A stretch of 64,000 nt of DNA from Patescibacteria group bacterium (GCA_038065955.1 JBBTPY010000003.1:39624-103623); one strand, 5' to 3'; counted from the stretch's first letter, positions 7,428-63,797 are shown. A program made the numbers and translations. The notes: a model not told the origin generated them from the letters alone.

Positions 7428-7919
7428 ATGGCGGAACAAAGAGAAAGAAAAATATTTAATAGGGGAAGAGGCGATAAAAAAGTTTCTGAATTTAAAGAAA
7501 AAGTATTGGATTTACGACGGGTAACCAGGGTGGTTGCCGGCGGCAAGCGCATGCGTTTTAGGGTAACGATAGTTGTCGGCGATGAAAAAGGAAGAGTCGG
7601 CCTTGGTATTGGTAAAGGATTGGATGTGGCTCAAGCGGTTGATAAAGCCAAAGCCAATGCCAAAAAAAATATAATCACTGTAAAACTTAAGGGAAAAACC
7701 ATTCCTCATGAAACAGAGGCGAAATTCAGCGCGGCTCATATAATAATAAAACCGGCGAAAGCCGGACACGGATTAAAAGCGGGCGGAGCGGCGCGGCAGG
7801 TTTTGCTTTTATCCGGTATTCGGGACGCCACGGCTAAATGTTTAGGGGGAACTAAAAATAAATTAACAAACGCGATGGCGGCGGTAGAAGCGTTAAAGAA
7901 GTTAAAAGTTAAAAGTTAA
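7428..7919 (+). CDS. rpsE: 30S ribosomal protein S5
   Basis: 163 aa, S5 dsRBD plus C-terminal domain; the 3' end carries a GTTAAAA heptamer tract. Confidence 0.95.
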   Translation: MAEQRERKIFNRGRGDKKVSEFKEKVLDLRRVTRVVAGGKRMRFRVTIVVGDEKGRVGLGIGKGLDVAQAVDKAKANAKKNIITVKLKGKTIPHETEAKFSAAHIIIKPAKAGHGLKAGGAARQVLLLSGIRDATAKCLGGTKNKLTNAMAAVEALKKLKVKS

Positions 7920-7924
7920 AAAGT
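7893..7924 (+). repeat. heptamer tandem repeat GTTAAAA x4 spanning the rpsE stop
   Basis: gttaaag aa gttaaaa gttaaaa gttaaaa agtt. Confidence 0.85.
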
Positions 7925-7925
7925 T

Positions 7926-8345
7926 ATGCAACTTCATCAATTAAAACCAAAAATTAAATTAAAAAATAAAAAGCGCGTTGGCCGCGGCGGCAAGCGCGGT
8001 TCTTTTTCCGGTAAAGGAATAAAAGGACAGAAAGCGCATGCCGGCCGGAAAATAAAATCGCAGATAATGGAGCTTATCCAAAGACTTCCGAAACTTAGAG
8101 GTTTTAAAAATAAATCTTTTTTTCCGAAGGCGATTGCCGTAAATGTCGGTGATTTGGATAAAAAGATAACGGTGAATATAATAAATAAAGAGGCGCTTTT
8201 TAAAGCGGGATTGATTAAAAAAATTGACAGTCCGGTAAAAATTTTAAGTGAAGGAGAAATCAAGCGCTCGCTTCAAATTGAAGGATTGAAAGTTTCAAAA
8301 ACCGCGAAAGAAAAGATTGAAGCCGCCGGCGGCAGTATAAAGTAA
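7926..8345 (+). CDS. rplO: 50S ribosomal protein L15 (rpsE is followed directly by rplO; no L30 gene)
   Basis: 139 aa, Gly/Arg-rich L15 N-terminus (KRVGRGGKRGSFSGKG). Confidence 0.9.
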   Translation: MQLHQLKPKIKLKNKKRVGRGGKRGSFSGKGIKGQKAHAGRKIKSQIMELIQRLPKLRGFKNKSFFPKAIAVNVGDLDKKITVNIINKEALFKAGLIKKIDSPVKILSEGEIKRSLQIEGLKVSKTAKEKIEAAGGSIK

Positions 8346-8383
8346 TAAGTAATAAGTAATAAGTAATAAGTAGTAAGGCAGTA
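8342..8383 (+). repeat. heptamer tandem repeat GTAATAA x4 plus degenerate units, between rplO and secY
   Basis: gtaataa x4, gtagtaa, ggcagta. Confidence 0.9.
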
Positions 8384-8393
8384 GGCGTGGAAT

Positions 8394-9662
8394 ATGAACA
8401 AACTTATTCAGCTTTTTAAAATTAAAGATTTGCGCGATAAAATCCTGAAAGTGGTTTTTTTGCTGGTTTGTTTTCGGGTATTGGCGGTTATTCCCATTCC
8501 TAATATTGATCTTGAAAGATTAAGGGAATTTTTGACTTCCAACCAGCTTTTCGGGCTTTTGAGTATTTTTTCCGGCGGCGCTTTGCAGAATCTTTCAATT
8601 GTGATGCTCGGCGTCGCTCCTTATATTACGGCGACTATTATCATGCAGCTTTTGACGATGATTTTTCCGCAATTGAAAGAAATGTATTATGAAGAAGGCG
8701 CGGCCGGCAAAGCGAAGTTCAACCGCTATTCGCGTTATTTGACCGTTCCTTTGGCCGCTTTGCAGTCTTACGGATTTTTAAATATTTTAATTTCTCAAAA
8801 TATTTTGCCTCGCGTCGGCTTGTTTGAAACAATGACGAATGTCGTTTTAATCACGGCCGGCTCAATGATTTTGGTCTGGATCGGCGAACTTATCAGCGAA
8901 CAGAAAATCAGCAACGGAATTTCTTTGATTATTTTTGCCGGCATTGTCAGTCAGTTGCCGGCGGTTATTCAAAATATTATTTTTTCTTATAATCCTGGCG
9001 ATCTAATGAATTATGCCGTTTTCGCGCTGATTTCAATTATTGTAATCGCCGGCGTCGTTTTTATGCAGGAGGGCGAAAGAAAAATTCCCATTGCTTACGC
9101 TAAGCGCGTGAGAGGAATGAAAATGTACGGCGGCGCCGCCACTTATTTGCCGCTTAAAGTCAATTCCGCGGGCGTGATTCCGATTATTTTCGCCATTTCA
9201 GTTTTGTTGTTCCCTCAATTTATCGCTCAAGCCTCTTCAATAATTTCCGCCGATTTATCGATAAAAATTAACGAGTTCGTAAGCCGTTTTTTTAACAATC
9301 AATATATTCACAGTTTGATTTATTTTTCATTAGTGGTGATTTTTACGTATTTTTATACGGCTGTTACTTTTGACCCGAAAGAAATTTCCAAAAATCTTCA
9401 GCGCGCCGGCGCTTTTATCACGGGTATTCGTCCGGGCGAATCAACGACTTTGGTTTTGTCGAAAATCGTCAATCGTCTTACATTAAGCGGCGCCGTTTTT
9501 CTGGGATTAATAGCGGTTTTGCCGAATGTTACTCAAATAATTACGGGAATTTCTGTTTTAACTATCGGTGGCACAGCGCTTTTAATCGTCGTTTCCGTGG
9601 CTCTGGAAACAATGAAACAAATTAACTCTCAACTGGTAATGAGAGAATATGAAGAAATTTAA
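8394..9662 (+). CDS. secY: preprotein translocase subunit SecY
   Basis: 422 aa, 10-TM SecY topology and motifs. Confidence 0.95.
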   Translation: MNKLIQLFKIKDLRDKILKVVFLLVCFRVLAVIPIPNIDLERLREFLTSNQLFGLLSIFSGGALQNLSIVMLGVAPYITATIIMQLLTMIFPQLKEMYYEEGAAGKAKFNRYSRYLTVPLAALQSYGFLNILISQNILPRVGLFETMTNVVLITAGSMILVWIGELISEQKISNGISLIIFAGIVSQLPAVIQNIIFSYNPGDLMNYAVFALISIIVIAGVVFMQEGERKIPIAYAKRVRGMKMYGGAATYLPLKVNSAGVIPIIFAISVLLFPQFIAQASSIISADLSIKINEFVSRFFNNQYIHSLIYFSLVVIFTYFYTAVTFDPKEISKNLQRAGAFITGIRPGESTTLVLSKIVNRLTLSGAVFLGLIAVLPNVTQIITGISVLTIGGTALLIVVSVALETMKQINSQLVMREYEEI

Positions 9663-9668
9663 TTTATT

Positions 9669-10355: not shown

Positions 10356-10358
10356 ATA

Positions 10359-13686: not shown

Positions 13687-14946
13687 ATGTTAGATATTAA
13701 TTTAATCCGGCAAAATCCGGAAAAAATTAAAAAAGGGATGGTGGCTAAAAATGTCAGTTCAAAATTAGTGGACGATTTTTTGGCGCTTGACGAAGGGTGG
13801 AGAAAATTAACCAAAGAAATTGATGATTTAAGGGCGGAACAGAAAAAACTTTCCGAAGTCCGTAAGATTGAAGAAGCTAAAAAAAATAAGGAAAAAATAA
13901 AAAATGCGGAAATAGAATTAAATGAAACGGAAAAACGGCGGGAAGAAATTTTGCGCGGCTTGCCGAATTTGCCGTTTGACGACGCGCCGGTTGGCAAAAA
14001 TGAAAGCGGCAATGTTGTTTTAAGAGAAATTGGCGAAAAATCGAAATTCGGCTTTGAGCCGAAAGACTATTTGGAAATTGTCGAAAAATTGGATTTAATT
14101 GACACAGAGCGGGCGGCTAAAGTTTCGGGCAGCCGTTTCGGTTATATTAAAGGCCAATTGGTTCTTTTGGAATTCGCTTTGGTCAAACTCGCATTAGATA
14201 CGGCGGTAAAAAAAGGATTTATTCCAATAATTCCGCCGGTGATAATTAAAGAAGAGATGATGCGGGCGATGGGGTACATTGACAGCCATAAGGACCGCGA
14301 AGAAACTTATTTTTTGGAAAAAGACAATTCGTATTTGGTGGCCACTTCGGAACAGTCAATCGGTCCTATGCATAGCGGCGAAATTTTTAACGAAAACGAA
14401 TTGCCGAAAAGATATATCGGTTTTTCAACTTGTTTTCGGCGCGAGGCTGGTTCTTATGGTAAAGACACTAAGGGAATTTTAAGAGTTCATCAGTTTGATA
14501 AAGCGGAAATGTTCAGTTTTTGCGAACCGGAGAAATCTAAAGAAGAACACGAATTACTGCTTTCAATAGAAGAAGATTTAATGAAATTATTAAAAATTCC
14601 TTATCGTGTTCTTAATATCTGTACCGGTGATTTAGGCGGTCCGGCCGCGAAAAAATACGATATTGAAGCGTGGCTGCCGGGGCAAAACGGCGGAAAAGGA
14701 GAATATCGCGAAACCCATTCCACTTCCAATTGTACTGATTTTCAGGCGCGGAGATTAAACATTAAATATAGGTCAAGTGTCAGAGGTCAAATGTCAAAGG
14801 TTGATTTTGTTCATACTCTCAATGGCACAGCTTTCGCTATTGGCCGAATGCTTATCGCTATTATTGAAAACTGCCAACAAAAAGACGGTTCAATTTTAAT
14901 GCCGGAAGTTTTGCGGGGATATTTGGGATTTAAGGAAATTAGATAA
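13687..14946 (+). CDS. serS: serine--tRNA ligase
   Basis: 419 aa; coiled-coil N-arm; class II core (TLNGTA..R); the loop before FVHTLNG is encoded by a GTCA-heptamer tract. Confidence 0.9.
   Translation: MLDINLIRQNPEKIKKGMVAKNVSSKLVDDFLALDEGWRKLTKEIDDLRAEQKKLSEVRKIEEAKKNKEKIKNAEIELNETEKRREEILRGLPNLPFDDAPVGKNESGNVVLREIGEKSKFGFEPKDYLEIVEKLDLIDTERAAKVSGSRFGYIKGQLVLLEFALVKLALDTAVKKGFIPIIPPVIIKEEMMRAMGYIDSHKDREETYFLEKDNSYLVATSEQSIGPMHSGEIFNENELPKRYIGFSTCFRREAGSYGKDTKGILRVHQFDKAEMFSFCEPEKSKEEHELLLSIEEDLMKLLKIPYRVLNICTGDLGGPAAKKYDIEAWLPGQNGGKGEYRETHSTSNCTDFQARRLNIKYRSSVRGQMSKVDFVHTLNGTAFAIGRMLIAIIENCQQKDGSILMPEVLRGYLGFKEIR
14771..14798 (+). repeat. GTCA-core heptamer tract inside serS
   Basis: gtcaagt gtcagag gtcaaat gtcaaag; encodes SVRGQMSKV. 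Confidence 0.75.
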
Positions 14947-15744: not shown

Positions 15745-17565
15745 TTATAGTTTGTAAATAAATATGGAAGTTCCCGCTTTATAATCCGGTTCATAAGGAT
15801 TTTTTATTTCTTTCAGCCATTGATATTCGTCTTCGGGATTTCGCTGTTGGCCCGGGTGAAGTTTGCCTAAAGCGCCTTGCAGATTGTTTATTGAAATCGC
15901 CAGCCATTCAATATTATAATCTTTCGGATTGCCTTTTGACGATTGCCACTGTTCAAACTTATCGTTTAAATAATATTTCGGACTGCCGCCGCCGAAATAA
16001 TCAATGGCAATTTTATTAATTTTTTCGCCGGCGGGCGGATTTTCAACAAAATTTTTAAGCCGTTTCAAATCTTGCCCCCAATCGTAATTGGAATCAGTTA
16101 CGTATTTATAGCCGTTTTCAACGCCGCCGCTAATTTGGTTAAAGTAAGAAAGATAATAAGGAGCGCTTAAAAATGTTTCCGCTAAATACCAGATTATCAA
16201 AATAGCGATAACGGCAGATTTAAATATGACTTTTGAATTATAGTTTATCCATTTTTTGAGCGCTGAAGCGGCGAGAATATAAATAAACGGCATTGTTGGC
16301 ATTAAGTGTCTAATGCCGATGTTAAGCGGGCTTTTAATGCTGTAAAGCCAGTAGAAAATCGCGAATGACAGCATTGAAAATTCGGCAAAATGGTTGCCGA
16401 GATAGTCCATAAAAGTTTGTAGTTTGTAGTTTGTGGTTTGTAGTTTTCTGATAATACCCCAAACGCTTAAAAAAAGCGCGATAAAAATTAGAATTAACGA
16501 TGGAACGGGTTCTTTTAAAATAAAAACAATTGGGAAATAATACCACCAGCCGCCGGCCGACACTTCGCCTAAGAAATATCCGGTGTTTCCGCCGGAAGAG
16601 CGTTGAAGCACCATTAAAACTCCTAAAAGATATTGGCCGAGCGGCCTTAAAATTTTATTTCCGGCCATCCAGATATTTATTTCCGCCGGAGCGCCGGAAA
16701 AAGAAGTTAAAATAAATTTTGTGTCGGCGACTTGTTTTTCAATCGGATAATTTATAGTAAATAAAAAATAAATCGCATAGATTAAAATATAACCGATAAT
16801 AAAGATGGCTGAAATTGATTTAAAATAGCGCAGTCCTCGGATGGAAAATCGTTTTAATCGCGCCGAAGGAGCGGTTTGTCGCCAGTCGTGATAGATTTTC
16901 CATATTAAAAAAACAGTAATTAAAAATATAAAAAATGGAATAAGTAAAAAGGCGGAAAATTTCATCGACTGGGCGATGCCGAAAGCCAATCCAGCGAATA
17001 TTAAATGCCGGCGCGACTGTCCAAAAAGGAATTTTACGAAATAATAAGTGGCGATAAATATTCCTAAAGCCGCGCCAATGTCTGTGGTTACATAATGACC
17101 GTGAGTCAAGACTGTCGGCGAAAAAGCGAATAAAAATGTCGGAAATAATGCCCACCAGCGGCCAATCAGTTCTTTTGACCAGATATAAATGAAAATTATT
17201 AAAATTAACGTAAGGAGCATCGGGCCGAGCCGCGACCATTGAATGATTGTGTCGGCATTATTGCCTGATTCGTAAAGAAATTGCGCGCCGGCGGCCCATT
17301 GGCCGTTGATATCCGTTTGCCAAGGCGATTTGTCGGTTGGAAAGTTTAATTTTTGAAATAACAGCGGAAAAGCGGCTAAAGCTTTTACTAATGGCGGATG
17401 TTCGGGGTTTAAGCGAAAATCCAGGTATTTGACATAACCATAGCCGGCCGGAATATGGGCAAGCTCATCCATTGTGGCGGACTCTTGAAAAGACGCATTA
17501 AGCATTAAAGCAAATGAAACGGCGGCGATTAAATAAAGAAACAATAAAGAAAGATGTTTAGACAT
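15745..17565 (-). CDS. GT-C superfamily membrane glycosyltransferase (GT39/PMT/ArnT-like)
   Basis: 606 aa polytopic protein with DE motif in the first loop (ATMDELAH); internal AGTTTGT x5 tract. Confidence 0.7.
   Translation of the reverse strand: MSKHLSLLFLYLIAAVSFALMLNASFQESATMDELAHIPAGYGYVKYLDFRLNPEHPPLVKALAAFPLLFQKLNFPTDKSPWQTDINGQWAAGAQFLYESGNNADTIIQWSRLGPMLLTLILIIFIYIWSKELIGRWWALFPTFLFAFSPTVLTHGHYVTTDIGAALGIFIATYYFVKFLFGQSRRHLIFAGLAFGIAQSMKFSAFLLIPFFIFLITVFLIWKIYHDWRQTAPSARLKRFSIRGLRYFKSISAIFIIGYILIYAIYFLFTINYPIEKQVADTKFILTSFSGAPAEINIWMAGNKILRPLGQYLLGVLMVLQRSSGGNTGYFLGEVSAGGWWYYFPIVFILKEPVPSLILIFIALFLSVWGIIRKLQTTNYKLQTFMDYLGNHFAEFSMLSFAIFYWLYSIKSPLNIGIRHLMPTMPFIYILAASALKKWINYNSKVIFKSAVIAILIIWYLAETFLSAPYYLSYFNQISGGVENGYKYVTDSNYDWGQDLKRLKNFVENPPAGEKINKIAIDYFGGGSPKYYLNDKFEQWQSSKGNPKDYNIEWLAISINNLQGALGKLHPGQQRNPEDEYQWLKEIKNPYEPDYKAGTSIFIYKL
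16414..16448. repeat. heptamer tandem repeat AGTTTGT x5 inside the GT-C gene
   Basis: agtttgt agtttgt agtttgt ggtttgt agttttc. Confidence 0.9.
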
Positions 17566-17588: not shown

Positions 17589-17951
17589 ATGTTTTTTATC
17601 CATAAATCCAGCGCAAAAATTCATTGGACAAATCATGTTAAAATAAAGATGCGATTTTATAAATTATCCGAGCAAAGAGTAAGGCGGATTTTAAATTCTC
17701 CGAAAAGAACGGAAGAAGGAATAGCGCCGAATACCGTGGCGCTTATGCAGGTTGCCGGCAGTGAAAAACATCCGTACGAAATTTGGGTAATGCTTCAAAA
17801 AATAAATCAGAAATCAGACATCAAGAGTCAGATGTTAAAAGTGATAAGCGCCTGGAAATATCCCGGCAGAACTAAACCTCGCGGCGAAATTGCGTTTAAT
17901 TTTATTCAGCAAGAATTTGCCGAATATAAAAATGAAGAAAAATCCGTTTAA
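17589..17951 (+). CDS. hypothetical protein
   Basis: 120-aa ORF; no motif recognised. Confidence 0.4.
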   Translation: MFFIHKSSAKIHWTNHVKIKMRFYKLSEQRVRRILNSPKRTEEGIAPNTVALMQVAGSEKHPYEIWVMLQKINQKSDIKSQMLKVISAWKYPGRTKPRGEIAFNFIQQEFAEYKNEEKSV

Positions 17952-18697: not shown

Positions 18698-19228
18698 ATG
18701 AAAGACGCACCACTTCCGCTGCTTCTTAAGCCTGTGGGTACCATTTATATACCTGCGACTATCGAAAAATTTGTGGTTCGGGAAAAGTTTGTGGTTCGGG
18801 AAAAGTTTGTGGTCAACACCAGCAGTAAATACGCGAAAATTTCTTATATTGGATATCTTTTTTCGAAATGGTTTCTCAATAAAATTGAGGAACCGAAGCC
18901 GGAAACGCATCTCCAGTATGCTGATTTACTGAGAGCGTCTTCGGGTAATCATATTCTCGCCGAGCTTGGCGAGAAAAAAGAAACAACCCTTGCCGAAATC
19001 TTTGATTTGATGATAATCCAACCGACTGGCGAGGACGACGTGTTGTTCACTAATGATTATAATAATAATATTTTTTGTGTCCGCGATGTTAATAATGAGC
19101 TTCGTGGTGTGAGAGTTTGGAATGTTTGGAATAATGACAGTTGGAGTAGAAGTATTAGTTGGCGTGTAGGCGCGTTTTTAGTTAATAATATGTGGCCTGA
19201 TGGTATCCGCGTCTTCTCTCGTGGTTAA
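18698..19228 (+). CDS. hypothetical protein with tandem KFVVRE repeats
   Basis: 176-aa ORF with a strong SD (aaaggagga) 8 nt upstream; internal 18-bp tandem repeat; higher GC than its neighbours. Confidence 0.5.
   Translation: MKDAPLPLLLKPVGTIYIPATIEKFVVREKFVVREKFVVNTSSKYAKISYIGYLFSKWFLNKIEEPKPETHLQYADLLRASSGNHILAELGEKKETTLAEIFDLMIIQPTGEDDVLFTNDYNNNIFCVRDVNNELRGVRVWNVWNNDSWSRSISWRVGAFLVNNMWPDGIRVFSRG
18770..18814 (+). repeat. 18-bp tandem repeat (tttgtggttcgggaaaag) x2.5
   Basis: direct reading; encodes (E)KFVVRE repeats. Confidence 0.9.
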
Positions 19229-32487: not shown

Positions 32488-32900
32488 TGGATTGTATTTT
32501 TTGTAAAATAATTAATAAGGAAATTCCGGCAAATATTATTCTTGAAGACGAATCGGCCTTGGTAATGTTGGATATTAATCCGAGAAGCCGGGGACACGCG
32601 ATAGTTTTGCCGAAAACGCATATTCAAAATATTTTAGAGCTGGCGGATAAAGACATTGAAGGAGTTTTTAAAATGGTTAAAAAGGCGACCGGTTTATTGG
32701 ATAAATCATTAAAGCCCGATGGCTTTACAATTGGAATTAACCATGGTAAAGTGAGCGGACAAACGGTTGCTCATCTGCATATTCATGTTATGCCGAGATG
32801 GTATTCTGACGGCGGCGGTTCAATTCATTCGGCGGTAAACAATCCGCCGAAAGAGTCAATTCAAGAAACAGCCGTAAAAATTTTAAATCCTAAATCCTAA
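32487..32900 (+). CDS. HIT-family (histidine triad) hydrolase
   Basis: HLHIHVMPR histidine triad; the 3' end carries a CCTAAAT/TAAATCC heptamer tract. Confidence 0.85.
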   Translation: MDCIFCKIINKEIPANIILEDESALVMLDINPRSRGHAIVLPKTHIQNILELADKDIEGVFKMVKKATGLLDKSLKPDGFTIGINHGKVSGQTVAHLHIHVMPRWYSDGGGSIHSAVNNPPKESIQETAVKILNPKS

Positions 32901-32918
32901 ATCCTAAATCCTAAATTA
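32884..32918 (+). repeat. heptamer tandem repeat TAAATCC x4-5 spanning the HIT stop codon
   Basis: taaatcc x4 then taaatta. Confidence 0.9.
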
Positions 32919-32924: not shown

Positions 32925-33134
32925 ATGATTGAACTTAATCGTCGCAAAGGCGAATCAGTAACCGCGTTTCTGCATCGGTTCAGCACGCGAATTAAGCAGA
33001 GCGGAGTTTTGCGCGAAGCTAAAAAACGCCGCTATTACAGCCGGCCGATTAATAAAGCCAAAAGGCGGGCCGCGGCTTTGTATCGCGCCGCGAAAAAGAA
33101 AGAGTTTGAGAAAAAGAGAAAAAGCGGTAGATAA
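32925..33134 (+). CDS. rpsU: 30S ribosomal protein S21
   Basis: 69 aa, basic S21-like sequence (RYYSRPINKAKRRA). Confidence 0.9.
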   Translation: MIELNRRKGESVTAFLHRFSTRIKQSGVLREAKKRRYYSRPINKAKRRAAALYRAAKKKEFEKKRKSGR

Positions 33135-44911: not shown

Positions 44912-46192
44912 ATGAAAATGAAAATCGGGATATTTTTAATTTTTGCCGCTGTTTGCGGTTTTGCCGCGTTTTTATTTTTAGGCGGCGCGTTTTTTTCTCG
45001 GGTTGAACCGGTTGAAGCGGCGGAAGAAATGAAAACGCTTTCTTTTTTTGTCGGTCAGCAAACCAGCGCCGCTTCATCAGTCAGCTGGCCTTTCACTTTT
45101 TACGTCGGCGACGATATTTCCACTTCCACCAAAAGCGCGTTTTTTGAAATCAGCGGCATCAGTCCGTCAACGGCGAATTTAATTGCCACAACCACTTTAA
45201 GCGGCGGCAGCGGCAGTTGTTCCCTAAACAGAACTTTAGACAATAACGGCCGTTTAAATAAATTTAAAATTGTTTATGATGCCACGAATTGTATTGACGT
45301 TTCGGCAAAAGGCGAATATTCCAGAACTTTAAACGTTGTTTTTAACAATCCGGTTGACGCTCTTTCGGCGAAATTCGCCATTACTTACCGTTTTACCGCG
45401 CCGACCAGCAACGGTTCAACCGCCATAAAAACAATTTCTTATTCCGCCAATGAGGGAACCGCCAGTTCTTCCGTCCCGGCCGGCCAAAATATTGTTTTAA
45501 ATTTCAGCCCTTACATCGGCGATGAAATTTCCACTTCCACTAAAAGCGCGTTTTTTGAAATCAGCGGCGTCAGTTTGGCCGCCGGCGCTTCGGCGATTGA
45601 TTTATCTTTAGGCGGCGGCAGCGGCAGTTGTTCCGTAAATCGGACGCTGGATACGACCGGATTTATCAATAAATTTCACATTTTGTACAACGTCAACGAT
45701 TGTATTAATATTTTTTCAAAAGGGGAATACAGCCGTTCTTTGACGATTAACGCCAGCGGCGCGGCGGTTTACATTTATTCGGCGAAATTGGTTTTAACTT
45801 ATCAATTCACGCCGCCTTCGGCCGGCGGCTACTGGGCAACCGGCACTTTTTATTCGCCGATTTTTGACACGGGCGCCATCAACGGCGCGTCTTATAATTG
45901 GATTATGTGGAAAGGGACGCTTAACGGCGGGAACGGGAAAATAAGATTACAACTGGCGACTTCCAATTCTTCCGGAGGGCCGTGGACTTATATCGGAGAA
46001 ACGCCGGGTTGTGATTCTTCGGTTTATTTTGAACCGCTTACGGACATTTCCAAGGAAATAAAATGTTTTTCAAGCCATAATAATAAAAGATATTTCCGTT
46101 ATAAATTGATTATTTGCTCTTCCAGCGATTGTTCAGCGGCTGGAACTAATACGCCGCAAGTGAACGACATGATTGTGAATTGGAGCCCATAA
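44912..46192 (+). CDS. secreted protein with two tandem ~145-aa domain repeats (paralogous to the C-terminal module of the 1271-aa protein)
   Basis: signal peptide; repeats DDISTSTKSAFFEISG...ITYRFTAP and DEISTSTKSAFFEISG...LTYQFTPP. Confidence 0.6.
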   Translation: MKMKIGIFLIFAAVCGFAAFLFLGGAFFSRVEPVEAAEEMKTLSFFVGQQTSAASSVSWPFTFYVGDDISTSTKSAFFEISGISPSTANLIATTTLSGGSGSCSLNRTLDNNGRLNKFKIVYDATNCIDVSAKGEYSRTLNVVFNNPVDALSAKFAITYRFTAPTSNGSTAIKTISYSANEGTASSSVPAGQNIVLNFSPYIGDEISTSTKSAFFEISGVSLAAGASAIDLSLGGGSGSCSVNRTLDTTGFINKFHILYNVNDCINIFSKGEYSRSLTINASGAAVYIYSAKLVLTYQFTPPSAGGYWATGTFYSPIFDTGAINGASYNWIMWKGTLNGGNGKIRLQLATSNSSGGPWTYIGETPGCDSSVYFEPLTDISKEIKCFSSHNNKRYFRYKLIICSSSDCSAAGTNTPQVNDMIVNWSP

Positions 46193-46198
46193 ACGACA

Positions 46199-46258
46199 AC
46201 TGACATATGACATTTGACAATTGACAGATTGATAACAAATGACAACTGACATATGAAC
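46199..46258 (+). repeat. heptamer tract NNNTGAC x~8 (ATCTGAC-family orientation)
   Basis: aactgac atatgac atttgac aattgac agattga ... tgacaac tgacata. Confidence 0.8.
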
Positions 46259-46468
46259 AATTTTAATAAAATATTTAGATTTCGGGAATTTCAAGTTTAT
46301 AAAGATTCAAGGAAATTCAGCAATGAATTAAAGAATTTTTCCAAAAAAAAATTTCCAAGTGAAGAGAGGTTTTGTCTTTTATCTCAATTTTGGCGAGCGC
46401 TTGATTCTATAATTTTAAATATCGCCGAAGGAACCGACATTATTATCCCGTCAATTAACGGCTTTTAG
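46253..46468 (+). pseudogene. four-helix-bundle (23S rRNA IVS-type) protein gene, 3'-truncated
   Basis: FREFQVYKDSRKF...KKFPSEERFCLLSQFWRALDSIILNIAEG matches the 4HB family consensus but stops after NIAEG (about 70 of the expected about 120 aa). Confidence 0.5.
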
Positions 46469-46482: not shown

Positions 46483-47040
46483 ATGAACAAAATAAATAAA
46501 AGTAAAAGGTCAGATGTCAGATGTCAGATGTCAGATGTCAATTGTCAGATGTCTGGCTTTTCCCTGTTGGAACTCATTATCTACATCGCCATTTTTGGGA
46601 CTGTGGTTTTGGCGACGACGAGCGTTTTGGTGACGGTTTTTGAAGGACGCGATTCAACGAATTCGCGCTATGAAGTTTTACAAAATATCCGTTTCTCTTC
46701 GGAAAAAATCAGGCAATTGGTTTATGACGCTTCGTCTTTTGCTGTTTCCGGCGCCTGTCCGTTTAATATTTTGGAAACGACAATCGGTTCGGCGACAACG
46801 AGCGTGGCCATTAATAGCGGTATTTTAACGCTTACTTCCGGCGGAAGCAGTACGCCGCTTATCGCCGAAAGCGTAACCGCCACCAGCACTTCCGGCAATT
46901 GTTTGTTCGCGAAAATTTCCAATCCCGCTCCAGCCAAATCCACGCTTCAAATGCGGTTCACAATCAGTTATAATGATAACGGAAACCAGCAATTGAAATT
47001 TTCCGATGAAATCAAAACGACAATCAGCCAGAGACAATGA
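46483..47040 (+). CDS. type IV pilin-like protein (prepilin) with an unusually long repeat-encoded leader
   Basis: class III signal G|FSLLELIIYIAIFG; the 25-aa leader MNKINKSKRSDVRCQMSDVNCQMSG is encoded by (GTCAGAT)n. Confidence 0.75.
   Translation: MNKINKSKRSDVRCQMSDVNCQMSGFSLLELIIYIAIFGTVVLATTSVLVTVFEGRDSTNSRYEVLQNIRFSSEKIRQLVYDASSFAVSGACPFNILETTIGSATTSVAINSGILTLTSGGSSTPLIAESVTATSTSGNCLFAKISNPAPAKSTLQMRFTISYNDNGNQQLKFSDEIKTTISQRQ
46509..46557 (+). repeat. heptamer tandem repeat GTCAGAT x7 (4 perfect units, then 3 degenerate) inside the pilin leader coding sequence
   Basis: gtcagat x4, gtcaatt, gtcagat, gtctggc. Confidence 0.95.
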
Positions 47041-47043
47041 AAC

Positions 47044-47115
47044 AACTGACAACTGACATCTGACCGCTTAAATGTCATATGTCATATGTTAAATCACATG
47101 TTAAATGTCAAATAT
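47044..47115 (+). repeat. heptamer tracts that switch orientation (AACTGAC/ATCTGAC then ATGTCAT/GTCAAAT) across the start of ORF 47086
   Basis: aactgac aactgac atctgac cgcttaa atgtcat atgtcat atgttaa atcacat gttaaat gtcaaat. Confidence 0.85.
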
Positions 47116-47499
47116 CAAAAGGGCGTAATCGCTTTGCCTTCAATAATAATGATTTCATTTTTGGTTTTAATCGCCGGCATCGGCATCGCTTCCAGCGGAT
47201 TTTTTGAAAATATGATGAGTTACGGCGACGTTAATTCCAAAAAAGCCCTTGTTTACGCCGAAGCCGGCGCCGAAGACGCGTTTGAACGGCTGGTAAAAAA
47301 CAAAAATTGCTCCTGCTCTTCTTATTCTTTAAGTTTCAGCGACGGTTCCGCCGCGATTGCGGTTTCCGGCGGAGCGAGCAGTAAAACCGTCGTTTCCGAA
47401 GGGACGGTAAACGGCAAAAAAAGAAAGGTTCAGGTGACGGTTTCTTTTGATGCCAATGATGAAGCGACGCAAACCGGCTGGCAGGAGATTGTTGATTAA
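47086..47499 (+). CDS. hypothetical membrane protein in the pilus locus (possible minor pilin/assembly factor)
   Basis: 137-aa ORF with an N-terminal hydrophobic segment; the start lies inside a heptamer tract. Confidence 0.4.
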   Translation: MLNHMLNVKYQKGVIALPSIIMISFLVLIAGIGIASSGFFENMMSYGDVNSKKALVYAEAGAEDAFERLVKNKNCSCSSYSLSFSDGSAAIAVSGGASSKTVVSEGTVNGKKRKVQVTVSFDANDEATQTGWQEIVD

Positions 47500-57427: not shown

Positions 57428-58657
57428 ATGCCGCTGTATAGTTATAAAGCCGTTGATAAAAATGGTTCGCCGACATCGGGAGAAATTTTGGCGGACAGCC
57501 GCGAAGAAGCGGTGGAAAATCTTTCGCGCGACGGATTATTGCCGATTATCGTTGAAGAAAAATCCGTCGGCAAGCTTTCGCAGTTTTCCGATTTGGCGCA
57601 ATTTTTTCCGTTTTTTCAGAAAATCGGCGCCATTGACAAAATTCTCTTAACCCGTTATTTGGCCGCGATTTTGAAAGCCGGCATCGGGTTGGCGGAAGCT
57701 TTGGAAATTATTTTAAACGACGCGAAAAAACCTTTGATTAGAAAAATTCTTCTGGAAATTAAAGCCGGCGTGGAAAGAGGGGAACCGCTTTCATCAATGT
57801 TCGCCGATTATCCGCGATATTTTTCCCCGATTTTTGTCGGGATGATAAAAGCCGGCGAACTTTCGGGCAGTTTGGAAAGCGCTCTGGAAAATCTTTCCGG
57901 CCAATTAATAAGGGATTACGACTTGTTAAAAAGGGTGAGAATGGCGATGATTTATCCGCTGATTCTTTTAATCGGTTCCGCCGGCATTATCGTGCTGATG
58001 ATGACTTTTGTTTTGCCGCGGATGGCGAAAGCTTTCAAAGGCATGCTCGCCGAATTGCCCCTGATTACGAGATTTTTTATCGCTTTAAGCGATTATTTAA
58101 GCAGAAGCCCGATTTTAACGATTTCCGTTTTTTTTATTTTAATCGCCGCGGGCTTTTATTTTTCCCGTTCGGTTTTCGGCAAAAAAATCATTTTCCGCGT
58201 TTTTGAAAAATTGCCGGTCGCTTCGGAACTTGTCAAGAAATTGGCACTGGCGCGTTTCAGCCGAACTTTCAAAAATCTTTTGGGAAGCGGCGTTTCGGCT
58301 ATTGAAGCGATTGAAATGAGCGCTTTAACGGTCGGCAATCCGACTTATCAGAAGTCGTTTTTGAATATTATGGAAGAATTAAAAAAGGGGTCAAATTTTT
58401 CCGCGGTTTTCAAATCGCGTCCCGCTCTTTACCCGAGTTTTTTTGCCAATATCATCGCCATCGGCGAACGAACCGGCACTTTGGAAAAATCGCTGGAAAC
58501 TTTAAGCGCGTTTTACGAAGAAGAAGTGGACGGACTTTTGAAAAATCTGGTTTCGCTTTTGGAACCGCTGCTGATTTTTGCAATGGGTATAATTGTGGCA
58601 ATGGTGGCTTTGTCCGTGCTTTTGCCGATATTCCGAATGGTCAGAATGTTTCAGTGA
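57428..58657 (+). CDS. pilC: type IV pilus/T2SS platform protein PilC (GspF family)
   Basis: 409 aa; duplicated GspF domains; 3 TM. Confidence 0.85.
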   Translation: MPLYSYKAVDKNGSPTSGEILADSREEAVENLSRDGLLPIIVEEKSVGKLSQFSDLAQFFPFFQKIGAIDKILLTRYLAAILKAGIGLAEALEIILNDAKKPLIRKILLEIKAGVERGEPLSSMFADYPRYFSPIFVGMIKAGELSGSLESALENLSGQLIRDYDLLKRVRMAMIYPLILLIGSAGIIVLMMTFVLPRMAKAFKGMLAELPLITRFFIALSDYLSRSPILTISVFFILIAAGFYFSRSVFGKKIIFRVFEKLPVASELVKKLALARFSRTFKNLLGSGVSAIEAIEMSALTVGNPTYQKSFLNIMEELKKGSNFSAVFKSRPALYPSFFANIIAIGERTGTLEKSLETLSAFYEEEVDGLLKNLVSLLEPLLIFAMGIIVAMVALSVLLPIFRMVRMFQ

Positions 58658-58666
58658 GGGTAAATT

Positions 58667-58695
58667 GACATCTAACATCTGACAACTGACATATT
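58667..58695 (+). repeat. heptamer tract AATTGAC ATCTAAC ATCTGAC AACTGAC upstream of a pilin gene
   Basis: direct reading; reverse-complement family of GTCAGAT. Confidence 0.85.
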
Positions 58696-58715
58696 AATAA
58701 TTTTAATAAAATATA

Positions 58716-59237
58716 ATGAATCAGATAAATAAATGTCAAAAGTCAGATGTCAGATGTCGTGTCAGCTGTCAGTTGTCTGGCTTCTCTCTTTTAGAATTGA
58801 TTTTGGTAATCGGAATTCTGGTTATTATCAGCGGTGTTGTTTCGCCATTTTTATTCGGCGGCAAAACTTCAATTGAAGTGGAGGAAGAAGCGAAAAAAAT
58901 AGCCGGCGTTTTGCGGCTGGCGCAAAATAAGGCGATGAGCCGCGAAGATGGATTAAGCTGGGGAGTTCATTTTGACAACATTACTTCAACGGAGCCGTTT
59001 TATGATTTTTTTCAGGGGAACAGCTATACGGCCGGCACTTCTACGGAACGATATTATTTATCCGGCGTCGTTGTTTTTCAAACGCCGGCAAGCGGCACTT
59101 CAACCGACATAATTTTTATTAAGCGCAGCGGCAGTTTGGCAAACGGAACGACTACGACTATTGCCGTAAAATCGCTTTCGCCGGAAATTATTAAAAATGT
59201 CATTATTTATCCAAACGGCAGGGTTAACGCGCAGTAA
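58716..59237 (+). CDS. type IV pilin-like protein with long repeat-encoded leader
   Basis: G|FSLLELILVIGILVI; 22-aa leader MNQINKCQKSDVRCRVSCQLSG; paralogous to 46483. Confidence 0.75.
   Translation: MNQINKCQKSDVRCRVSCQLSGFSLLELILVIGILVIISGVVSPFLFGGKTSIEVEEEAKKIAGVLRLAQNKAMSREDGLSWGVHFDNITSTEPFYDFFQGNSYTAGTSTERYYLSGVVVFQTPASGTSTDIIFIKRSGSLANGTTTTIAVKSLSPEIIKNVIIYPNGRVNAQ
58742..58781 (+). repeat. degenerate GTCAGAT heptamer repeat inside the pilin leader coding sequence
   Basis: gtcagat gtcagat gtcgt gtcagct gtcagtt gtctggc. Confidence 0.9.
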
Positions 59238-61224: not shown

Positions 61225-61290
61225 ATTTAATATTTAATTTATGCGACCTTTTTATTTTTATTTCCTTAAATTTTCAATCTTTCGACAAGC

Positions 61291-62394
61291 TCAAGATTTC
61301 AGGTTTTCAATTATCGCCACTTCCAGAGGGACAATGGGAAAAGGGGAGTAGCGCATTTCCGTGTAAGCCCGGATTAGCGATTTAATCAAGTTGATTGTTT
61401 TTTGTTCATCAATTAACCGGCTGTGTTCTTTGATTTTTCCGAGTTCCATTTCAGTCAATTCTTTTTTAAATTCGTTTTCCAAAGCCGGGGCGAATTTCAG
61501 GGCCAAAACGCGGCGGAAATAATGTATTAAGTCTTTATTAAATTGCGTCAGATTATAACCGGCTTCGTTTATTTTAGAAAGATAATTTAAAGCGATTTCC
61601 GTATTGTTTTTAAGCAGAGCTTCCGCCATTTGGCTTGTTTTGGAAAAACTTACCCGGCCGAGAATCGTTTCCACGCTTTCAAGGGTGATTTCTTCTTCAA
61701 GCGACGCTATTTGGTCCAAAAGCGATTCGGCGTCGCGGAAACTGCCTTCGGCCGAGGCGGCGATAAGTTCCAGCGCCTCTTCGTTCGCGGAAATTTTTTC
61801 CGCTTTAGCGATGGATTTTAATTTTTCAACCAAAATCATCAGCGGCAGGCGTTTAAAATGAAATCTTTGCGTTCGCGAAAGAATCGTTGCCGGCATTTTT
61901 TCGTATTCGGTGGTGGCCAAAATGAAAATGGCGTGAGCCGGCGGCTCTTCCAAAGTTTTAAGCAGGGCGTTAAAAGCGTCTTTGGTAAGCTGGTGGGCTT
62001 CGTCAATAATATAAATTTTGTATTTTGAGGAAGCGGGGGAGACGCGAACGCTTTCTTTAAGGTTTCTGATTTCATCAATACCGCGATTGGAAGCGGCGTC
62101 TATTTCAATCACGTCCAAATTGCGGCCGTTATCAATATCTTGGCAAGTTCGGCATTCATTACAAGGTTCGCCGACAGTCTTAAATTTTTTGTCGTTTTGC
62201 CGTTTTTCGCAGTTGGCGATTTTGGCGAGCAATCGCGCCGTGGTGGTTTTACCGCTGCCGCGCGGGCCGAAAAACAAATAAGCGTGCGCCAGGCGGTCAA
62301 GCTTGGCGGCGTTTTTCAAAATCTCAACAATGGTATTTTGGCCGAGCAAATCATTTAAACTTTTAGGCCGATATTTGCGATATAAAGCAAGCAT
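61291..62394 (-). CDS. dnaX: DNA polymerase III subunit gamma/tau (short form)
   Basis: YRPKSLNDLLGQ; Walker A GPRGSGKTT; zinc module CxxC; 367 aa. Confidence 0.9.
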   Translation of the reverse strand: MLALYRKYRPKSLNDLLGQNTIVEILKNAAKLDRLAHAYLFFGPRGSGKTTTARLLAKIANCEKRQNDKKFKTVGEPCNECRTCQDIDNGRNLDVIEIDAASNRGIDEIRNLKESVRVSPASSKYKIYIIDEAHQLTKDAFNALLKTLEEPPAHAIFILATTEYEKMPATILSRTQRFHFKRLPLMILVEKLKSIAKAEKISANEEALELIAASAEGSFRDAESLLDQIASLEEEITLESVETILGRVSFSKTSQMAEALLKNNTEIALNYLSKINEAGYNLTQFNKDLIHYFRRVLALKFAPALENEFKKELTEMELGKIKEHSRLIDEQKTINLIKSLIRAYTEMRYSPFPIVPLEVAIIENLKS

Positions 62395-62480
62395 ATATTT
62401 TCATTTTACCAAATTTTCTTTATTTTGGCTAATTTATTAAACATTTACAACTGTTATTTTATGATTTAACATTAAGCAAA

Positions 62481-63797
62481 ATGCGGTATTATGTCTTCGG
62501 TTTTTTATTTTTAACGGTCGCGGCGGGCGCCTCTTTTTTTGTTTTGACGAAAAATAATAATATTGAAATTATTACAGATATTGTTGATTTTACCGGTAAG
62601 GTTAATAGTTCTTCAACCGTAAATAATACCAATAACGAATCGGTTGTTAAAAATATTGATATTGAAAATCAAAAGCCGTTAAGCAATCCGCCAGAAACTA
62701 TTAAGGCGATTTATTTGACCGGCTGGTCGGCTGGCAGTTCCAAAAAAATAGATTATCTCGTGAATCTGGCGAAAGAAACAGAAATAAACGCCGTGGTCAT
62801 TGACATTAAAGATTACTCCGGCTACATCGCTTATGACATAGATAACGAAGAAATTGAAAAATACAAAGCCAAAAAAATAATGATTCCGAAAATAAACGCT
62901 TTGATTAAAAAACTTCACGATGAAGGCATTTATGTTATTGCCAGAATCACGGTTTTTCAGGACCCTGTTTTGGCGAAAGCCCGACCGGATTTGGCAATTC
63001 ACTCCAAAGCAAAGTGTCAAGTGTCAGGTGTCAAGTGTCAGGTGTCGCCGTCAACTCTTTGGCTTGACAATAAAAAACTCGCCTGGATTGACCCGGCCGC
63101 CGAAGAAGCGTGGAATTATAATATTACCATCGCCAAAGACGCGGCAAGCAGGGGATTTGACGAAATAAATTTTGATTATATCCGTTTCGCTTCGGACGGC
63201 GATTTGAAAGATATGATTTTTCCATCAACACAGATAGACACAGATAAAACGCAGATAAACACAGATAATAATTATAACTCGGTAGCTTTAAGAAGAAAAG
63301 TTATCAAAAGTTTTTTTAAATATTTAAGAGAACAATTGCCGAATATAAAAATTTCAGCGGATTTATTCGGTTTAGTCACCGTAAATAAAGACGATATGGG
63401 AATCGGCCAGATTATTGAAGACGCTTATGAATATTTTGATTATGTTTCTCCAATGGTTTACCCGTCGCATTACGCCAAAGGATTTATCGGTTATCAAAAT
63501 CCGGCGAAATATCCGTATGAAGTGATAAAATATTCAATGGATAGCGCTCTGTCGCGACTAACGACTCACAACTTACGACTTACAACAGCGACTTCCACAA
63601 CTATATCTACAACTACTTCGTCGTTGGTCAAACTCCGTCCCTGGCTTCAGGATTTCAATTTAGGGGCGAAATATGACGCAAAAATGGTAAAAGAGCAAAT
63701 TCAGGCGGTTTATGATGCCGCTTCAAGCACTCCGGAACTGGCAAACGGATGGATGTTGTGGAATCCGGCGAATAATTATACGCGCGACGCGCTTTAA
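62481..63797 (+). CDS. putative secreted glycoside-hydrolase-like TIM-barrel protein (YngK/DUF4015-like)
   Basis: signal anchor; IKAIYLTGWSAG...INAVVIDIKDYSGYIAYD motif; three internal tandem-repeat tracts. Confidence 0.45.
   Translation: MRYYVFGFLFLTVAAGASFFVLTKNNNIEIITDIVDFTGKVNSSSTVNNTNNESVVKNIDIENQKPLSNPPETIKAIYLTGWSAGSSKKIDYLVNLAKETEINAVVIDIKDYSGYIAYDIDNEEIEKYKAKKIMIPKINALIKKLHDEGIYVIARITVFQDPVLAKARPDLAIHSKAKCQVSGVKCQVSPSTLWLDNKKLAWIDPAAEEAWNYNITIAKDAASRGFDEINFDYIRFASDGDLKDMIFPSTQIDTDKTQINTDNNYNSVALRRKVIKSFFKYLREQLPNIKISADLFGLVTVNKDDMGIGQIIEDAYEYFDYVSPMVYPSHYAKGFIGYQNPAKYPYEVIKYSMDSALSRLTTHNLRLTTATSTTISTTTSSLVKLRPWLQDFNLGAKYDAKMVKEQIQAVYDAASSTPELANGWMLWNPANNYTRDAL
63014..63055 (+). repeat. 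heptamer tandem repeat GTGTCAA/GTGTCAG x6 inside the coding sequence
   Basis: gtgtcaa gtgtcag gtgtcaa gtgtcag gtgtcgc cgtcaac; encodes KCQVSGVKCQVSPS. Confidence 0.9.
63229..63270 (+). repeat. about 10-bp tandem repeat (cagata-rich) inside the coding sequence
   Basis: cagatagaca cagataaaac gcagataaac acagataata; encodes QIDTDKTQINTDNN. Confidence 0.8.
63555..63620 (+). repeat. about 12-bp tandem repeat (tacgact-tacaac-like) inside the coding sequence
   Basis: cgactaacgactcacaacttacgacttacaacagcgacttccacaactatatctacaactacttcg; encodes RLTTHNLRLTTATSTTISTTTSS. Confidence 0.8.

Follow-up and report, generated by a model that had tools for sequence, protein, structure and literature searches.

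The window and its heptanucleotide arrays

The stretch of DNA analysed here, referred to as the window, comprises 64,000 nucleotides (nt) from a Patescibacteria group bacterium (GCA_038065955.1, JBBTPY010000003.1:39624-103623), a member of the candidate phyla radiation (CPR) from Hainich groundwater. It carries the ribosomal-protein genes rpsE and rplO followed by secY, the seryl-tRNA synthetase gene serS, a glycosyltransferase gene, a HIT gene followed by rpsU, a pilus locus with pilC and type IV pilin genes, and a glycoside-hydrolase-like gene of the DUF4015 family. Tandem arrays of heptanucleotides lie in or between these genes. In the pilus locus one family of them, with a GTCA core, forms the two arms of a cassette around a decayed PF05635 gene (23S_rRNA_IVP or S23p), and this cassette runs into the 5' end of a pilin gene. 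Coordinates count from the first letter of the window, features lie on the + strand unless stated otherwise, and loci used for comparison carry an L number.

Period-7 arrays were catalogued in the window with Tandem Repeats Finder, which gave about 16 sites. These include every tract named in an earlier, sequence-only reading of this DNA, which had placed heptamer tracts in at least 12 places. Exact tandem tracts of at least three copies number five at period 7 and one at period 6, and there are none at periods 4, 5 and 8-15. When mismatches are tolerated, period 7 has six tracts of at least three copies, whereas 100 simulated windows from a third-order Markov model average 0.00. Two-copy exact 7-mers (27 observed, 8.5 expected), period-7 tracts of at least 2.5 copies (9 observed, 0.3 expected) and occurrences of GTCANNNGTCA (22 in the window, 0.33 in shuffles) give the same picture, so that the density described as unusual in the sequence-only reading is indeed far above chance and confined to period 7. 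Several unit families coexist, mostly outside constrained coding sequence, and the coding tracts correspond to loops, tails and leaders. An Rfam search of the window returned no family at the tracts, and found only two tRNAs and no rRNA.

GTCA-family cassettes in the pilus locus

In the pilus locus, GTCA-core tracts occur as inverted pairs forming long stems, and they flank a decayed 23S_rRNA_IVP gene, two features that had been overlooked before. The 5' arm of the most complete cassette (46191-46262, +) is built of TGACA-type heptamers such as GACAACT, GACATAT, GACATTT and GACAATT. It begins 3 nt past the stop of the open reading frame (ORF) at 44912-46192 and continues into the ATG of the S23p gene at 46253. 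This gene (46253-46468, +), which belongs to a family of four-helix-bundle proteins, is reduced to an ORF of 71 codons matching profile positions 1-50 of 106 (Pfam E=1.4e-10). It has suffered an internal out-of-frame deletion, and its original 3' end, ..QLTAFRKKLLNEQNK*, is still legible to position 46500. The 3' arm, (GTCAGAT)6.4 at 46509-46553 (+), lies in the annotated leader of the pilin ORF 46483-47040, which reads MNKINKSKRSDVRCQMSDVNCQMSG/FSLLEL (the slash follows the Gly(-1) residue) and contains an N_methyl motif. The arm stops at the Gly(-1) codon, and its last unit provides an in-frame ATG (MSG/F). The two arms (46191-46262 and 46505-46556) form a duplex of -52 kcal/mol (z=-10 against shuffled arms), with 38 arm-to-arm pairs in the minimum-energy fold.

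Two smaller elements of the same family accompany the cassette. An ORF-less foldback (47042-47119, +) consists of a TGAC-type arm (47042-47064), 5 nt and a GTCA-type arm (47070-47119), and takes up the whole interval that separates the pilin stop from the Gly(-1) codon of a minor pilin (ORF 47086-47499, MLNHMLNVKYQKG/VIALPS). Its fold reaches -18.4 kcal/mol (z=-2.3) and its arm duplex -16 kcal/mol (z=-5.8), with 18 arm-to-arm pairs. The third element (58666-58777, +) lies between pilC (57428-58657) and the pilin ORF 58716-59237. Its 5' arm (58666-58692) is followed by a remnant of the S23p gene in which the first ~25 nt are joined to the last ~20 nt (58693-58732), and then by a 3' arm that reaches the Gly(-1) codon (58733-58777). 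As it aligns to both ends of the cassette, it is a deletion derivative of it, and its pairing is strong (fold -39.7 kcal/mol, z=-5; arm duplex -32 kcal/mol, z=-7.5; 21 arm-to-arm pairs).

A full-length S23p gene of 128 codons' worth of protein (128 aa) occurs in the matching layout in L219 and L220, which belong to another lineage and whose pilin is only 47% identical. The order there is upstream stop, (GACATCT)3-GACAACT, S23p gene, (GTCAGAT)4 and pilin Gly(-1) codon. Within the GTCA family, five positions of the unit are conserved (1.05-1.5 bits) and two are variable (about 0.5 bits). The related peptides that the sequence-only reading had attributed to GTCA-core tracts are found as stated: RCQMS and NCQMS in the pilin leaders, RGQMS in SerRS and KCQVS in the DUF4015 hydrolase.

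Two other roles were considered for these elements and set aside. The TTGACA-containing 5' arms were examined as sigma-70 promoters, and only weak matches were obtained (CTGACA-18-AATATT, 9/12), no better than shuffles; counted overall, they exceeded shuffles modestly in one of two regions and not at all in the other. These matches are given by the last TGACA unit of the 5' arms, at 46246-46275 and 58672-58701 (CTGACA-18-AATATT and CTAACA-18-AATAAT); the unit in other CPR cassettes is a perfect TTGACA. An invertible promoter or shufflon was dropped, the loop of the element at 58.7 kb being just 40 nt long and no recombinase lying nearby.

Replacement of pilin 5' ends

For the three pilin genes concerned, the interval from the upstream stop to the Gly(-1) codon is wholly cassette. 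Their orthologues (72-86% identity) have short leaders without a tract, the shortest being MKG/F. L011, a relative that lacks the insertion, has 19 nt after the upstream stop and then ATG AAA GGA TTT, and its next gene follows after 11 nt with MNFIRSQRG/V. Since the cassette exactly fills the interval, the native spacer, start codon and leader-coding sequence have been replaced. Two candidate starts are available to the pilin, namely an upstream MNxINK that overlaps the 3' end of the S23p gene in another frame, and the ATG (once TTG) of the last unit, which gives MSG/F. The junction ATG-TCN-GGN (MSG/F) is conserved among the window, L218, L219 and an Azambacteria-type genome (L255). The leaders of four genes, of 54, 63, 72 and 75 nt, are all in frame, which mildly favours translation of the array.

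The association with pilins recurs. Of seven independent CPR cassettes, five immediately precede a type IV pilin gene (window, L218, L219, L255, L258); the other two are that of L233, which has a glycosyltransferase gene on one side and asnB on the other, and that of L236, which follows frr. The cassette of L255 (1167-1700) is full-length and lies between pilC and a pilin gene, in the same place as the deletion derivative of the window. That of L258 (1166-1760) has a full-length S23p gene and follows pilD and two pilin genes, and that of L219 (180-670) is directly upstream of a pilin gene. The pilC-cassette-pilin arrangement has thus been seen twice, at window 58657-58780 and in L255. TGACA/GTCA arms are present in all six CPR cassettes examined. 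The S23p protein of L219 has 1057 homologues. The best 120 of these 1057 have 66-100% identity to it, and their sources are Azambacteria, Spechtbacteria, Staskawiczbacteria, Uhrbacteria and Paceibacterota, with one Ignavibacteria record. Such a spread of one subfamily, at 66-91% identity over several candidate phyla, fits a horizontally moving element. One pilin homologue (P0007, 203 aa) has an N-terminal extension, MKTTSYKDLIVWQK..., that by eye resembles the start of a four-helix-bundle protein, which suggests a cassette remnant fused upstream of a pilin in another lineage.

Three causes are possible for this bias towards pilin genes. The cassette might insert there preferentially, it might arrive by gene conversion across the conserved segment that encodes GFSLLEL, or it might be selected for, for instance because it offers a processing site from which a stable pilin message is released. 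Selection of this kind would have a precedent in the pap operon of E. coli, where endonucleolytic processing gives a stable major-pilin mRNA.

Stability of the arrays

The tracts were compared with contigs from other samples and assemblers that are 99.9-100% identical to the window; among them is contig_106 of ENA ERZ1286166, with a length of 695 kb. The rpsE tract is the same base for base in 10/10 other assemblies, the rplO tract in 9/9, and the serS, PMT and orf17589 tracts (see below) in 3/3 each, and the coding tracts all preserve their reading frame. The sequence-only reading had allowed that the repeats might have been collapsed or expanded by the assembler. As the tracts are identical across samples, assemblers and read types, they are not assembly artefacts as far as consensus assemblies show, and the probability left to that explanation is negligible.

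The same reading had likened the tracts to mycoplasma contingency loci and, as one of two explanations for their density, had proposed selection for variable surface loops. A phase-variable switch is tempting for the pilin leaders: if the upstream MNxINK start were used, the arrays would lie within the pilin reading frame, and a change in unit number, 7 not being a multiple of 3, would shift that frame and toggle pilin expression, as with the CTCTT repeats of Neisseria opa. Pilins are typical targets of phase variation, and the four in-frame leader lengths also speak for this possibility. Unit numbers, however, are constant in up to 10 covering assemblies. In L216, a sister strain of 98.9% identity with 58 substitutions over 5.5 kb, all the arrays of the pilus locus have unchanged unit number, and in the relative L254 (92.4% nucleotide identity) the PMT and orf17589 arrays are equal in length and differ only by point substitutions within units. 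The arrays are therefore not contingency loci. The tracts, moreover, are short and imperfect (at most 4.6 perfect units), most of them lie in or beside housekeeping genes, and the ATG or TTG of the last unit would serve as an in-frame start independent of unit number, so that the frame would not shift if that start were used. A phase-variation switch, being unsupported, has been removed from the account, and we regard it as very improbable. Selection for variable surface loops is not indicated either: the arrays occupy constraint-free intervals, namely stop-to-start spacers, cleaved prepilin leaders, a hairpin turn and C-terminal tails.

Array length does change over longer times. L233 and L235 encode an identical S23p protein and differ by ~3 units in the 5' arm. 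No polymorphism in unit number other than this one, at L233 2428-2486 and in L235 (same gene and neighbours), was observed among close CPR strains.

Solitary arrays and the serS array

Outside the cassettes, the arrays are solitary. The first, (AAGTTAA)n at 7892-7926 (+), is unstructured. It encodes the C-terminus and stop of rpsE (...ALKKLKVKS*), and 4 nt separate its end from the rplO ATG. The sequence-only reading had counted four copies; the array is there, and its copy number is corrected to 3.3 perfect or 4.5 imperfect copies. The rpsE/rplO junction of relatives is compact (...AAAGTTTAAAAGTT/ATG, the slash here marking the gene boundary) and holds ~1.7 copies of the unit, which makes the tract a local expansion of a proto-repeat. 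At window 7919-7926, rplO follows rpsE directly, with no rpmD (L30) gene between them, an adjacency that has been reported for many CPR genomes. The second array, (AAGTAAT)n at 8340-8377 (+), has 4.7 perfect copies and 5.4 in all, and extends from the last rplO codons and stop to 16 nt before the secY ATG. The rplO-secY gap of relatives is 1-10 nt, and the tract reads as an expansion of the stop context. In one relative, a plant-type telomere repeat, (AACCCTA)5, lies 1 nt upstream of the secY start (L182 9351-9385; L183 3307-3341).

These two tracts speak for plain slippage microsatellites, an idea of Mrazek and colleagues by which replication or repair in the lineage favours slippage by 7 nt. 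Arrays would then form independently at any proto-repeat and survive at tolerant sites, and the link to PF05635 genes would be incidental. Both expand local junction sequence. Period 7 is enriched irrespective of unit, in the window and in its relatives, and a heptamer excess has been reported for many bacteria, together with a hypothesis of polymerase slippage (PMC4679880, PMC4692102). The variation in array length between L233 and L235, and among Coxiella strains, agrees with it as well. Slippage fits less well with unit numbers that stay constant over 1-8% divergence, and further observations that it leaves unexplained are given in the next two sections; as a full account of the arrays it is unlikely.

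The array in serS differs in being a recent gain. It consists of GTCAAGT GTCAGAG GTCAAAT GTCAAAG (14770-14801, +) and encodes RSSVRGQMSKV. The sequence-only reading had placed it in a surface loop; it falls in the beta-hairpin turn immediately ahead of motif 3, where the window protein has three residues more than the Aquifex SerRS 2dq3. The array is missing from SerRS proteins of 91% identity and from the L254 locus (92.4% identical), whose loop reads RD-KSDKLNY, the net gain in the window being 12 nt. The DNA of the L254 loop (...AAGTCCGATAAATTA...) contains GTCCGAT, one mismatch from the unit GTCAGAT, and since L254 lacks the array and has this sequence, the array is taken as a recent gain at a near-match. 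Several other relatives have arrays of other units at the same hairpin turn, and we read the site as a permissive position at which arrays are recurrently gained. A single ancient orthologous array with drifting units was considered and rejected, because a relative of 91-92% identity has no array and recurrent gain or frequent loss is more likely.

The remaining tracts are found in or at the ends of coding regions. The PMT-type GT-C glycosyltransferase gene, on the - strand, has an array at 16414-16446 that reads (ACAAACT)n along its coding strand, AGTTTGT x4.7 on the + strand, and encodes KLQTTNYKLQT; L138 and L152 have arrays of other units at this position. A degenerate ATCAGAA/GTCAGAT array (17804-17845, +) lies in the hypothetical ORF 17589-17951 (orf17589), encodes INQKSDIKSQMLKVI and has the same length in L254. 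The (TAAATCC)4.7 array (32884-32916, +) covers the last five HIT residues and the stop, and ends 8 nt before the ATG at 32925 of rpsU (S21; Pfam E=5e-7). The same unit stands directly before rplN, rplF and adk in L138, L140, L146, L169 and L173, often as the 3' arm of a hairpin. The array before rpsU is solitary and belongs to this unit family, which is scattered through relatives. In the DUF4015 gene (62481-63797), a GTCA-core array, (GTGTCAA GTGTCAG)2.5 at 63012-63046 (+), encodes KCQVSGVKCQVS; the sequence-only reading was right about its presence and counted six units where there are five. The same gene has a weak period-7/14 array of CGACTTA-like units (63555-63603, +), encoding RLTTHNLRLTTATSTTI, whose membership of a unit family is uncertain.

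Two repeats of other periods were also seen in the window: an 18-nt unit repeated 2.8 times (GAAAAGTTTGTGGTTCGG, 96% matches) at 18764-18813, and a 10/21-nt unit (AACACAGATA x4.1) in the DUF4015 gene at 63227-63268.

Arrays in related genomes

Relatives were collected by means of SecY and comprise 80 loci (59-79% protein identity, 1.1 Mb). They contain 60 period-7 tracts, against 0-1 for each of periods 8-15, and the heptamer excess is thus lineage-wide. Tract density is uneven: some genomes have 4-6 per 10 kb, and others, mostly the more distant ones, have none. Many tracts in the ribosomal-protein operons include the upstream stop and leave 0-16 nt to the next ATG.

Wherever arrays are adjacent, in the window or its relatives, they are inverted complements (16/16 pairs, in at least seven unit families). 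Composite elements of this kind recur, including a variant unit, at two junctions of L140 and at the orthologous junction of another genome. Within a genome, 29.5% of array pairs from different loci share their unit within one mismatch, compared with 9.6% between genomes (permutation p<=0.001). Slippage leaves each of these observations unexplained: that all 16 neighbouring pairs are inverted complements, that the two L140 junctions have identical elements down to the variant unit, and that units are shared within genomes and TAAATCC recurs before different genes. The sequence-only reading had proposed, as its first explanation, a process that generates or spreads repeats, and a spreading process is what the data support: unit families are shared within genomes, the GTCA family is tied to a mobile-looking cassette and the serS array is a recent gain.

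The composite hairpins between cistrons were located at L140 4216-4284 and 9429-9497, L146 9341-9409, L138 6150-6233, and L155 2933-3020, 5112-5204 and 5942-6027. Their types in the ribosomal-protein operons of relatives include (AGGTTTT)n-loop-(CTAACAC)n-ATG, (TAGAATW)n-TAGGGA...(TCCTAAA)n-ATG and (AATAACC)n-GCGCATnAGAAAGCGCATCCC-(GTTATAG)n. The 3' arm reaches the start codon, with no Shine-Dalgarno sequence remaining.

PF05635 genes in other genomes

The PF05635 family is named after an ORF in intervening sequences (IVS) of 23S rRNA. The IVS of Coxiella burnetii is a stem-loop with the S23p ORF in the loop, as described by Warrier and colleagues (PMC4990558). In it, three tandem copies of GACAGAT and a degenerate fourth immediately precede the S23p ATG, the copy number of the heptamer is 2 or 3 depending on the strain, RNase III makes its 5' cut at the first repeat, and the ORF is in decay, one strain having a 176-bp deletion (PMC4990558). 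A comparable IVS was found in the 23S rRNA of Azospirillum lipoferum (L231), where GACAGAG/GACGGAT arms pair as a closing stem. A closing arm-to-arm stem was obtained in 10/10 elements folded (z=-4.5 to -13).

Twenty plasmid-borne PF05635 genes were selected by protein similarity alone, and array periods were assigned by eye from their flanks, as the automatic tract-finder missed several imperfect arrays at these genes. Short-period arrays, usually inverted, bracket 19 of the 20; they have period 7 in 15 cases and period 8 in three, and one is roughly periodic. The period-7 units vary (ACAGGTG, AGTCAGG, AGTAGGG, AAAAGCT, GGGAAAA, AGGGTGT, GGTTTAA, CTTCTGC, GACAGAG). Period 8 was found in Gemmatirosa (L246 529-608 and 1040-1073), Oscillatoria (L250 469-640 and 1395-1455) and Tolypothrix (L253 1101-1128), and the Picosynechococcus gene has merely roughly periodic inverted repeats of GGAGATA type. 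Only the gene of Pseudanabaena PCC 7367 has no bracketing array. In the first 11 loci, 14/22 PF05635 gene ends have a period-7 tract no more than 60 nt away, as opposed to 7/129 other gene ends of these loci (Fisher p=1.3e-9), and periods 5, 6, 8, 9 and 10 occur near 0-1 of the 22. This array enrichment at PF05635 gene ends, about 30-fold, is likewise left unexplained by slippage.

Inverted period-7 arrays also bracket four of five PF05635 genes in loci of Chromatiales, Pyrinomonadaceae, Bacteroidales and Prevotella; the fifth, a second Prevotella gene, has a rough period-7 stretch upstream only, and its contig ends at the ORF. PF05635 genes typically lie between cistrons of an operon and in its orientation, for instance between cas6 and cas4, cas10 and cmr3, ribonucleotide reductase genes, or an Fe-S assembly gene and sufB. 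Cyanobacterial genes with their arrays occupy the first three of these positions at L221 2661-3480, L222 2950-3380, L226 2881-3442 and L224 2907-3397. The 23S_rRNA_IVP genes described earlier as 'cas-associated' may therefore be intervening cassettes instead of Cas components. PF05635 genes had been noted before in cas operons (PMC3936711) and within rRNA insertions of CPR (bioRxiv 10.1101/2024.02.27.582315), and the passages of these two sources that name the family are silent on repeats; neither 'tandem repeat' nor 'inverted repeat' occurs in the latter. With the exception of the Coxiella description, no link of PF05635 genes with heptamer arrays was found in the literature searched.

The TGTCA core itself was also tried as a feature of special standing across bacteria and rejected. 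Among the matches listed in a (TGTCANN)x4 scan of GTDB genomes, many phyla were represented, mostly by perfect single-unit microsatellites that contain TGTCA; the scan shows that heptamer arrays are common, and lends this core no special standing. A tract of TGTCAAT-TGTCAAT/C-TGTCAAC recurs identically in gut and rumen Bacteroidales and Clostridia (L030, L034, L035, L039, L056, L064, L068, L075, L080, L081, L086 and others), and is probably part of one widely shared mobile element.

Proposed origin and function of the arrays

The reading that we favour, and consider probable, is that these are stable arrays of the type of the short tandemly repeated repetitive (STRR) sequences, of which the GTCA family constitutes the arms of an S23p foldback cassette that supplies pilin 5' ends, the other tracts being solitary. 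The dominant family has the unit TGTCA-N-N, with the TGACA-unit 5' arm abutting the S23p ATG and the complementary GTCA-unit array as the 3' arm. In the transcript the arms pair as a closing stem of 20-40 bp, with the ORF in the loop, and the cassette now provides the pilin start, either from the ATG or TTG of the last unit or from the upstream MNxINK overlapping the S23p 3' end. By analogy with rRNA IVS, RNase III would cut the stem and so free the pilin message from the upstream cistron. The rpsE/rplO and rplO/secY arrays are read as having grown in place by slippage from a proto-repeat. Those in serS, in the hydrolase gene and before rpsU (TAAATCC) have units of families dispersed in this genome or its relatives, and were probably seeded at near-matches by template switching or conversion.

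A wider proposal can be built on this reading. Inverted arrays of short period, in most cases 7 nt, would then be the structural signature of pan-bacterial S23p foldback elements in rRNA and protein operon transcripts; these elements, with their derivatives and the arrays seeded from them, would be a main source of the heptanucleotide excess; the pentameric S23p would recognise or maintain the arrays; and in CPR the element would have been co-opted as a pilin 5' module that comprises start codon, leader and processing site. We put this forward tentatively, since as a whole it is rather doubtful.

Several observations weigh against the favoured reading or its extension. No PF05635 gene was found by jackhmmer, run on all ORFs, near the ~100 arrays in the 1.1 Mb of ribosomal-protein loci of relatives, and in ~0.9 Mb of TGTCANN-array loci there are just five, one of them adjoining the selected array. 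Most arrays are therefore not cassette arms in cis, a general association in cis between arrays and PF05635 genes is not upheld, and derivation from cassettes holds for the GTCA family only. The three period-8 cases and the plasmid gene without an array mean that 7 is no absolute rule. Most of the plasmid sample is cyanobacterial, and cyanobacteria are rich in arrays anyway; this bias is unlikely to be the whole explanation, since the comparison with other gene ends of the same loci argues against it. No transposase, target-site duplication or other mobility signature was seen beside the three elements of the window, which was not scanned exhaustively for transposases, and the signature motif of rnc (RNase III) is absent from the six frames of the window. 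Finally, the shared 5' ends of the pilin genes could stem from gene conversion between paralogues instead of separate insertions.

A different function for the arrays is suggested by HutP, which binds UAG-N4 repeats with one unit per subunit. By analogy, a ring-shaped protein that takes up one unit per subunit is an attractive idea. The arrays might be binding sites of this kind (HutP- or TRAP-like) for the pentameric S23p, or for a translational regulator such as S1, CsrA or a cold-shock protein, as has been proposed for the TAACTGA repeats of Beggiatoaceae (PMC4679880), and regulate downstream translation. In keeping with this, many arrays stop 0-16 nt short of a start codon, taking the place of any Shine-Dalgarno sequence, the pattern of five conserved and two variable positions would suit a recognised unit, ribosomal-protein genes are frequent neighbours both here and in Beggiatoaceae, and the CPR cassettes with S23p proteins of 66-100% identity all share the unit type. 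Yet common descent of the whole cassette would equally make unit and protein subfamily vary together, the units at one junction differ widely between genomes, and the GTCA family also lies inside the coding regions of serS and the hydrolase, which are unlikely regulatory positions. Binding of S23p or another protein is therefore kept as a candidate function, and a distinctly improbable one.

The favoured reading bears on the old question of the source and function of heptanucleotide arrays, which have been known in cyanobacteria for decades. One unit family is now demonstrably the paired arms of an S23p/23S_rRNA_IVP cassette, and the bracketing of this gene family holds in the six other phyla sampled. 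If the link were general, the heptamer excess would reduce to one element and one small protein, which can be tested at the bench, and the bracketing across phyla may bear on why heptamers dominate the long microsatellites of bacteria. Elements of IVS type are, moreover, extended from rRNA genes to operons, where they abut and apparently supply the start and leader of pilins. The episymbiotic lifestyle of CPR bacteria is thought to depend on pili.

Comparison with known systems

One system for comparison is that of contingency loci, such as the opa CTCTT repeats of Neisseria or the 7-bp promoter repeats of HMW1/2 in Haemophilus (PMC8262952). A non-triplet unit at the 5' end of a surface-protein gene is common to both, whereas the window shows no copy-number polymorphism, its tracts are short and imperfect, and they lie mostly at housekeeping genes.

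Repetitive extragenic palindromic (REP) elements and REPINs, Correia repeat enclosed elements (CREE), other miniature hairpin elements of bacteria and the Foldback transposons of eukaryotes are similar in that they form dispersed intergenic hairpins in operons and include ORF-less derivatives beside an ORF-bearing parent. Correia elements are substrates of RNase III (PMC2649163), and Foldback elements have terminal inverted repeats made of short tandem repeats (PMC3573991). The elements described here differ from this group in that no transposase (RAYT or other) or target-site duplication was seen next to them and their arms are pure short-period arrays, not unique inverted repeats.

The TAACTGA repeats of Beggiatoaceae (PMC4679880) resemble the window arrays in position, as they lie immediately upstream of start codons, overlap upstream stops and are frequent in ribosomal-protein operons, including before S21. 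The overlap with upstream stops follows from the orientation, which gives stops in all three frames, and the other orientation is tolerated within ORFs near protein ends. A window unit, CAACTGA, is one mismatch away from TAACTGA. The units here are, in contrast, CAACTGA, CATCTGA and others, several families coexist, and many arrays are paired into hairpins.

With the STRR and heptanucleotide repeats of cyanobacteria, the arrays share period 7, several families per genome, a mostly intergenic location and some inverted pairs. The resemblance drawn by the sequence-only reading is thus apt: the window has period-7 arrays of several unit families, over-represented relative to other periods. Heptanucleotides were reported in 2007 by Mrazek et al. 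to be the most over-represented long simple sequence repeats in many bacteria, according to the summaries in PMC4679880 and PMC4692102. What sets the window apart is a CPR genome of less than 1 Mb, and one unit family for which a specific gene cassette can be named. Arrays bracket PF05635 genes in the examined plasmids of cyanobacteria, a link not found in the literature searched.

Close relatives of the GTCA cassettes are the S23p IVS of Coxiella burnetii, Leptospira and Azospirillum lipoferum. In both, a PF05635 ORF lies in the loop of a long inverted-repeat stem, the tandem heptamers directly before its ATG have a GACA core (GACANNT here, GACAGAT in Coxiella), decay or deletion of the ORF is frequent, and the distribution is patchy, suggesting horizontal spread (PMC4990558). 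Unlike these, the elements of the window lie between protein-coding genes and not in a helix of 23S or 16S rRNA, and their 3' arm enters and supplies the 5' end of a pilin gene. Excision by RNase III, known from rRNA IVS, would here apply by extension. The protein-operon setting in CPR, with its formation of pilin starts, and the bracketing of PF05635 genes across phyla are undescribed in the literature searched. The tracts themselves are of a known kind, the heptanucleotide arrays, and the GTCA family belongs to a known type of element, the S23p intervening sequence.

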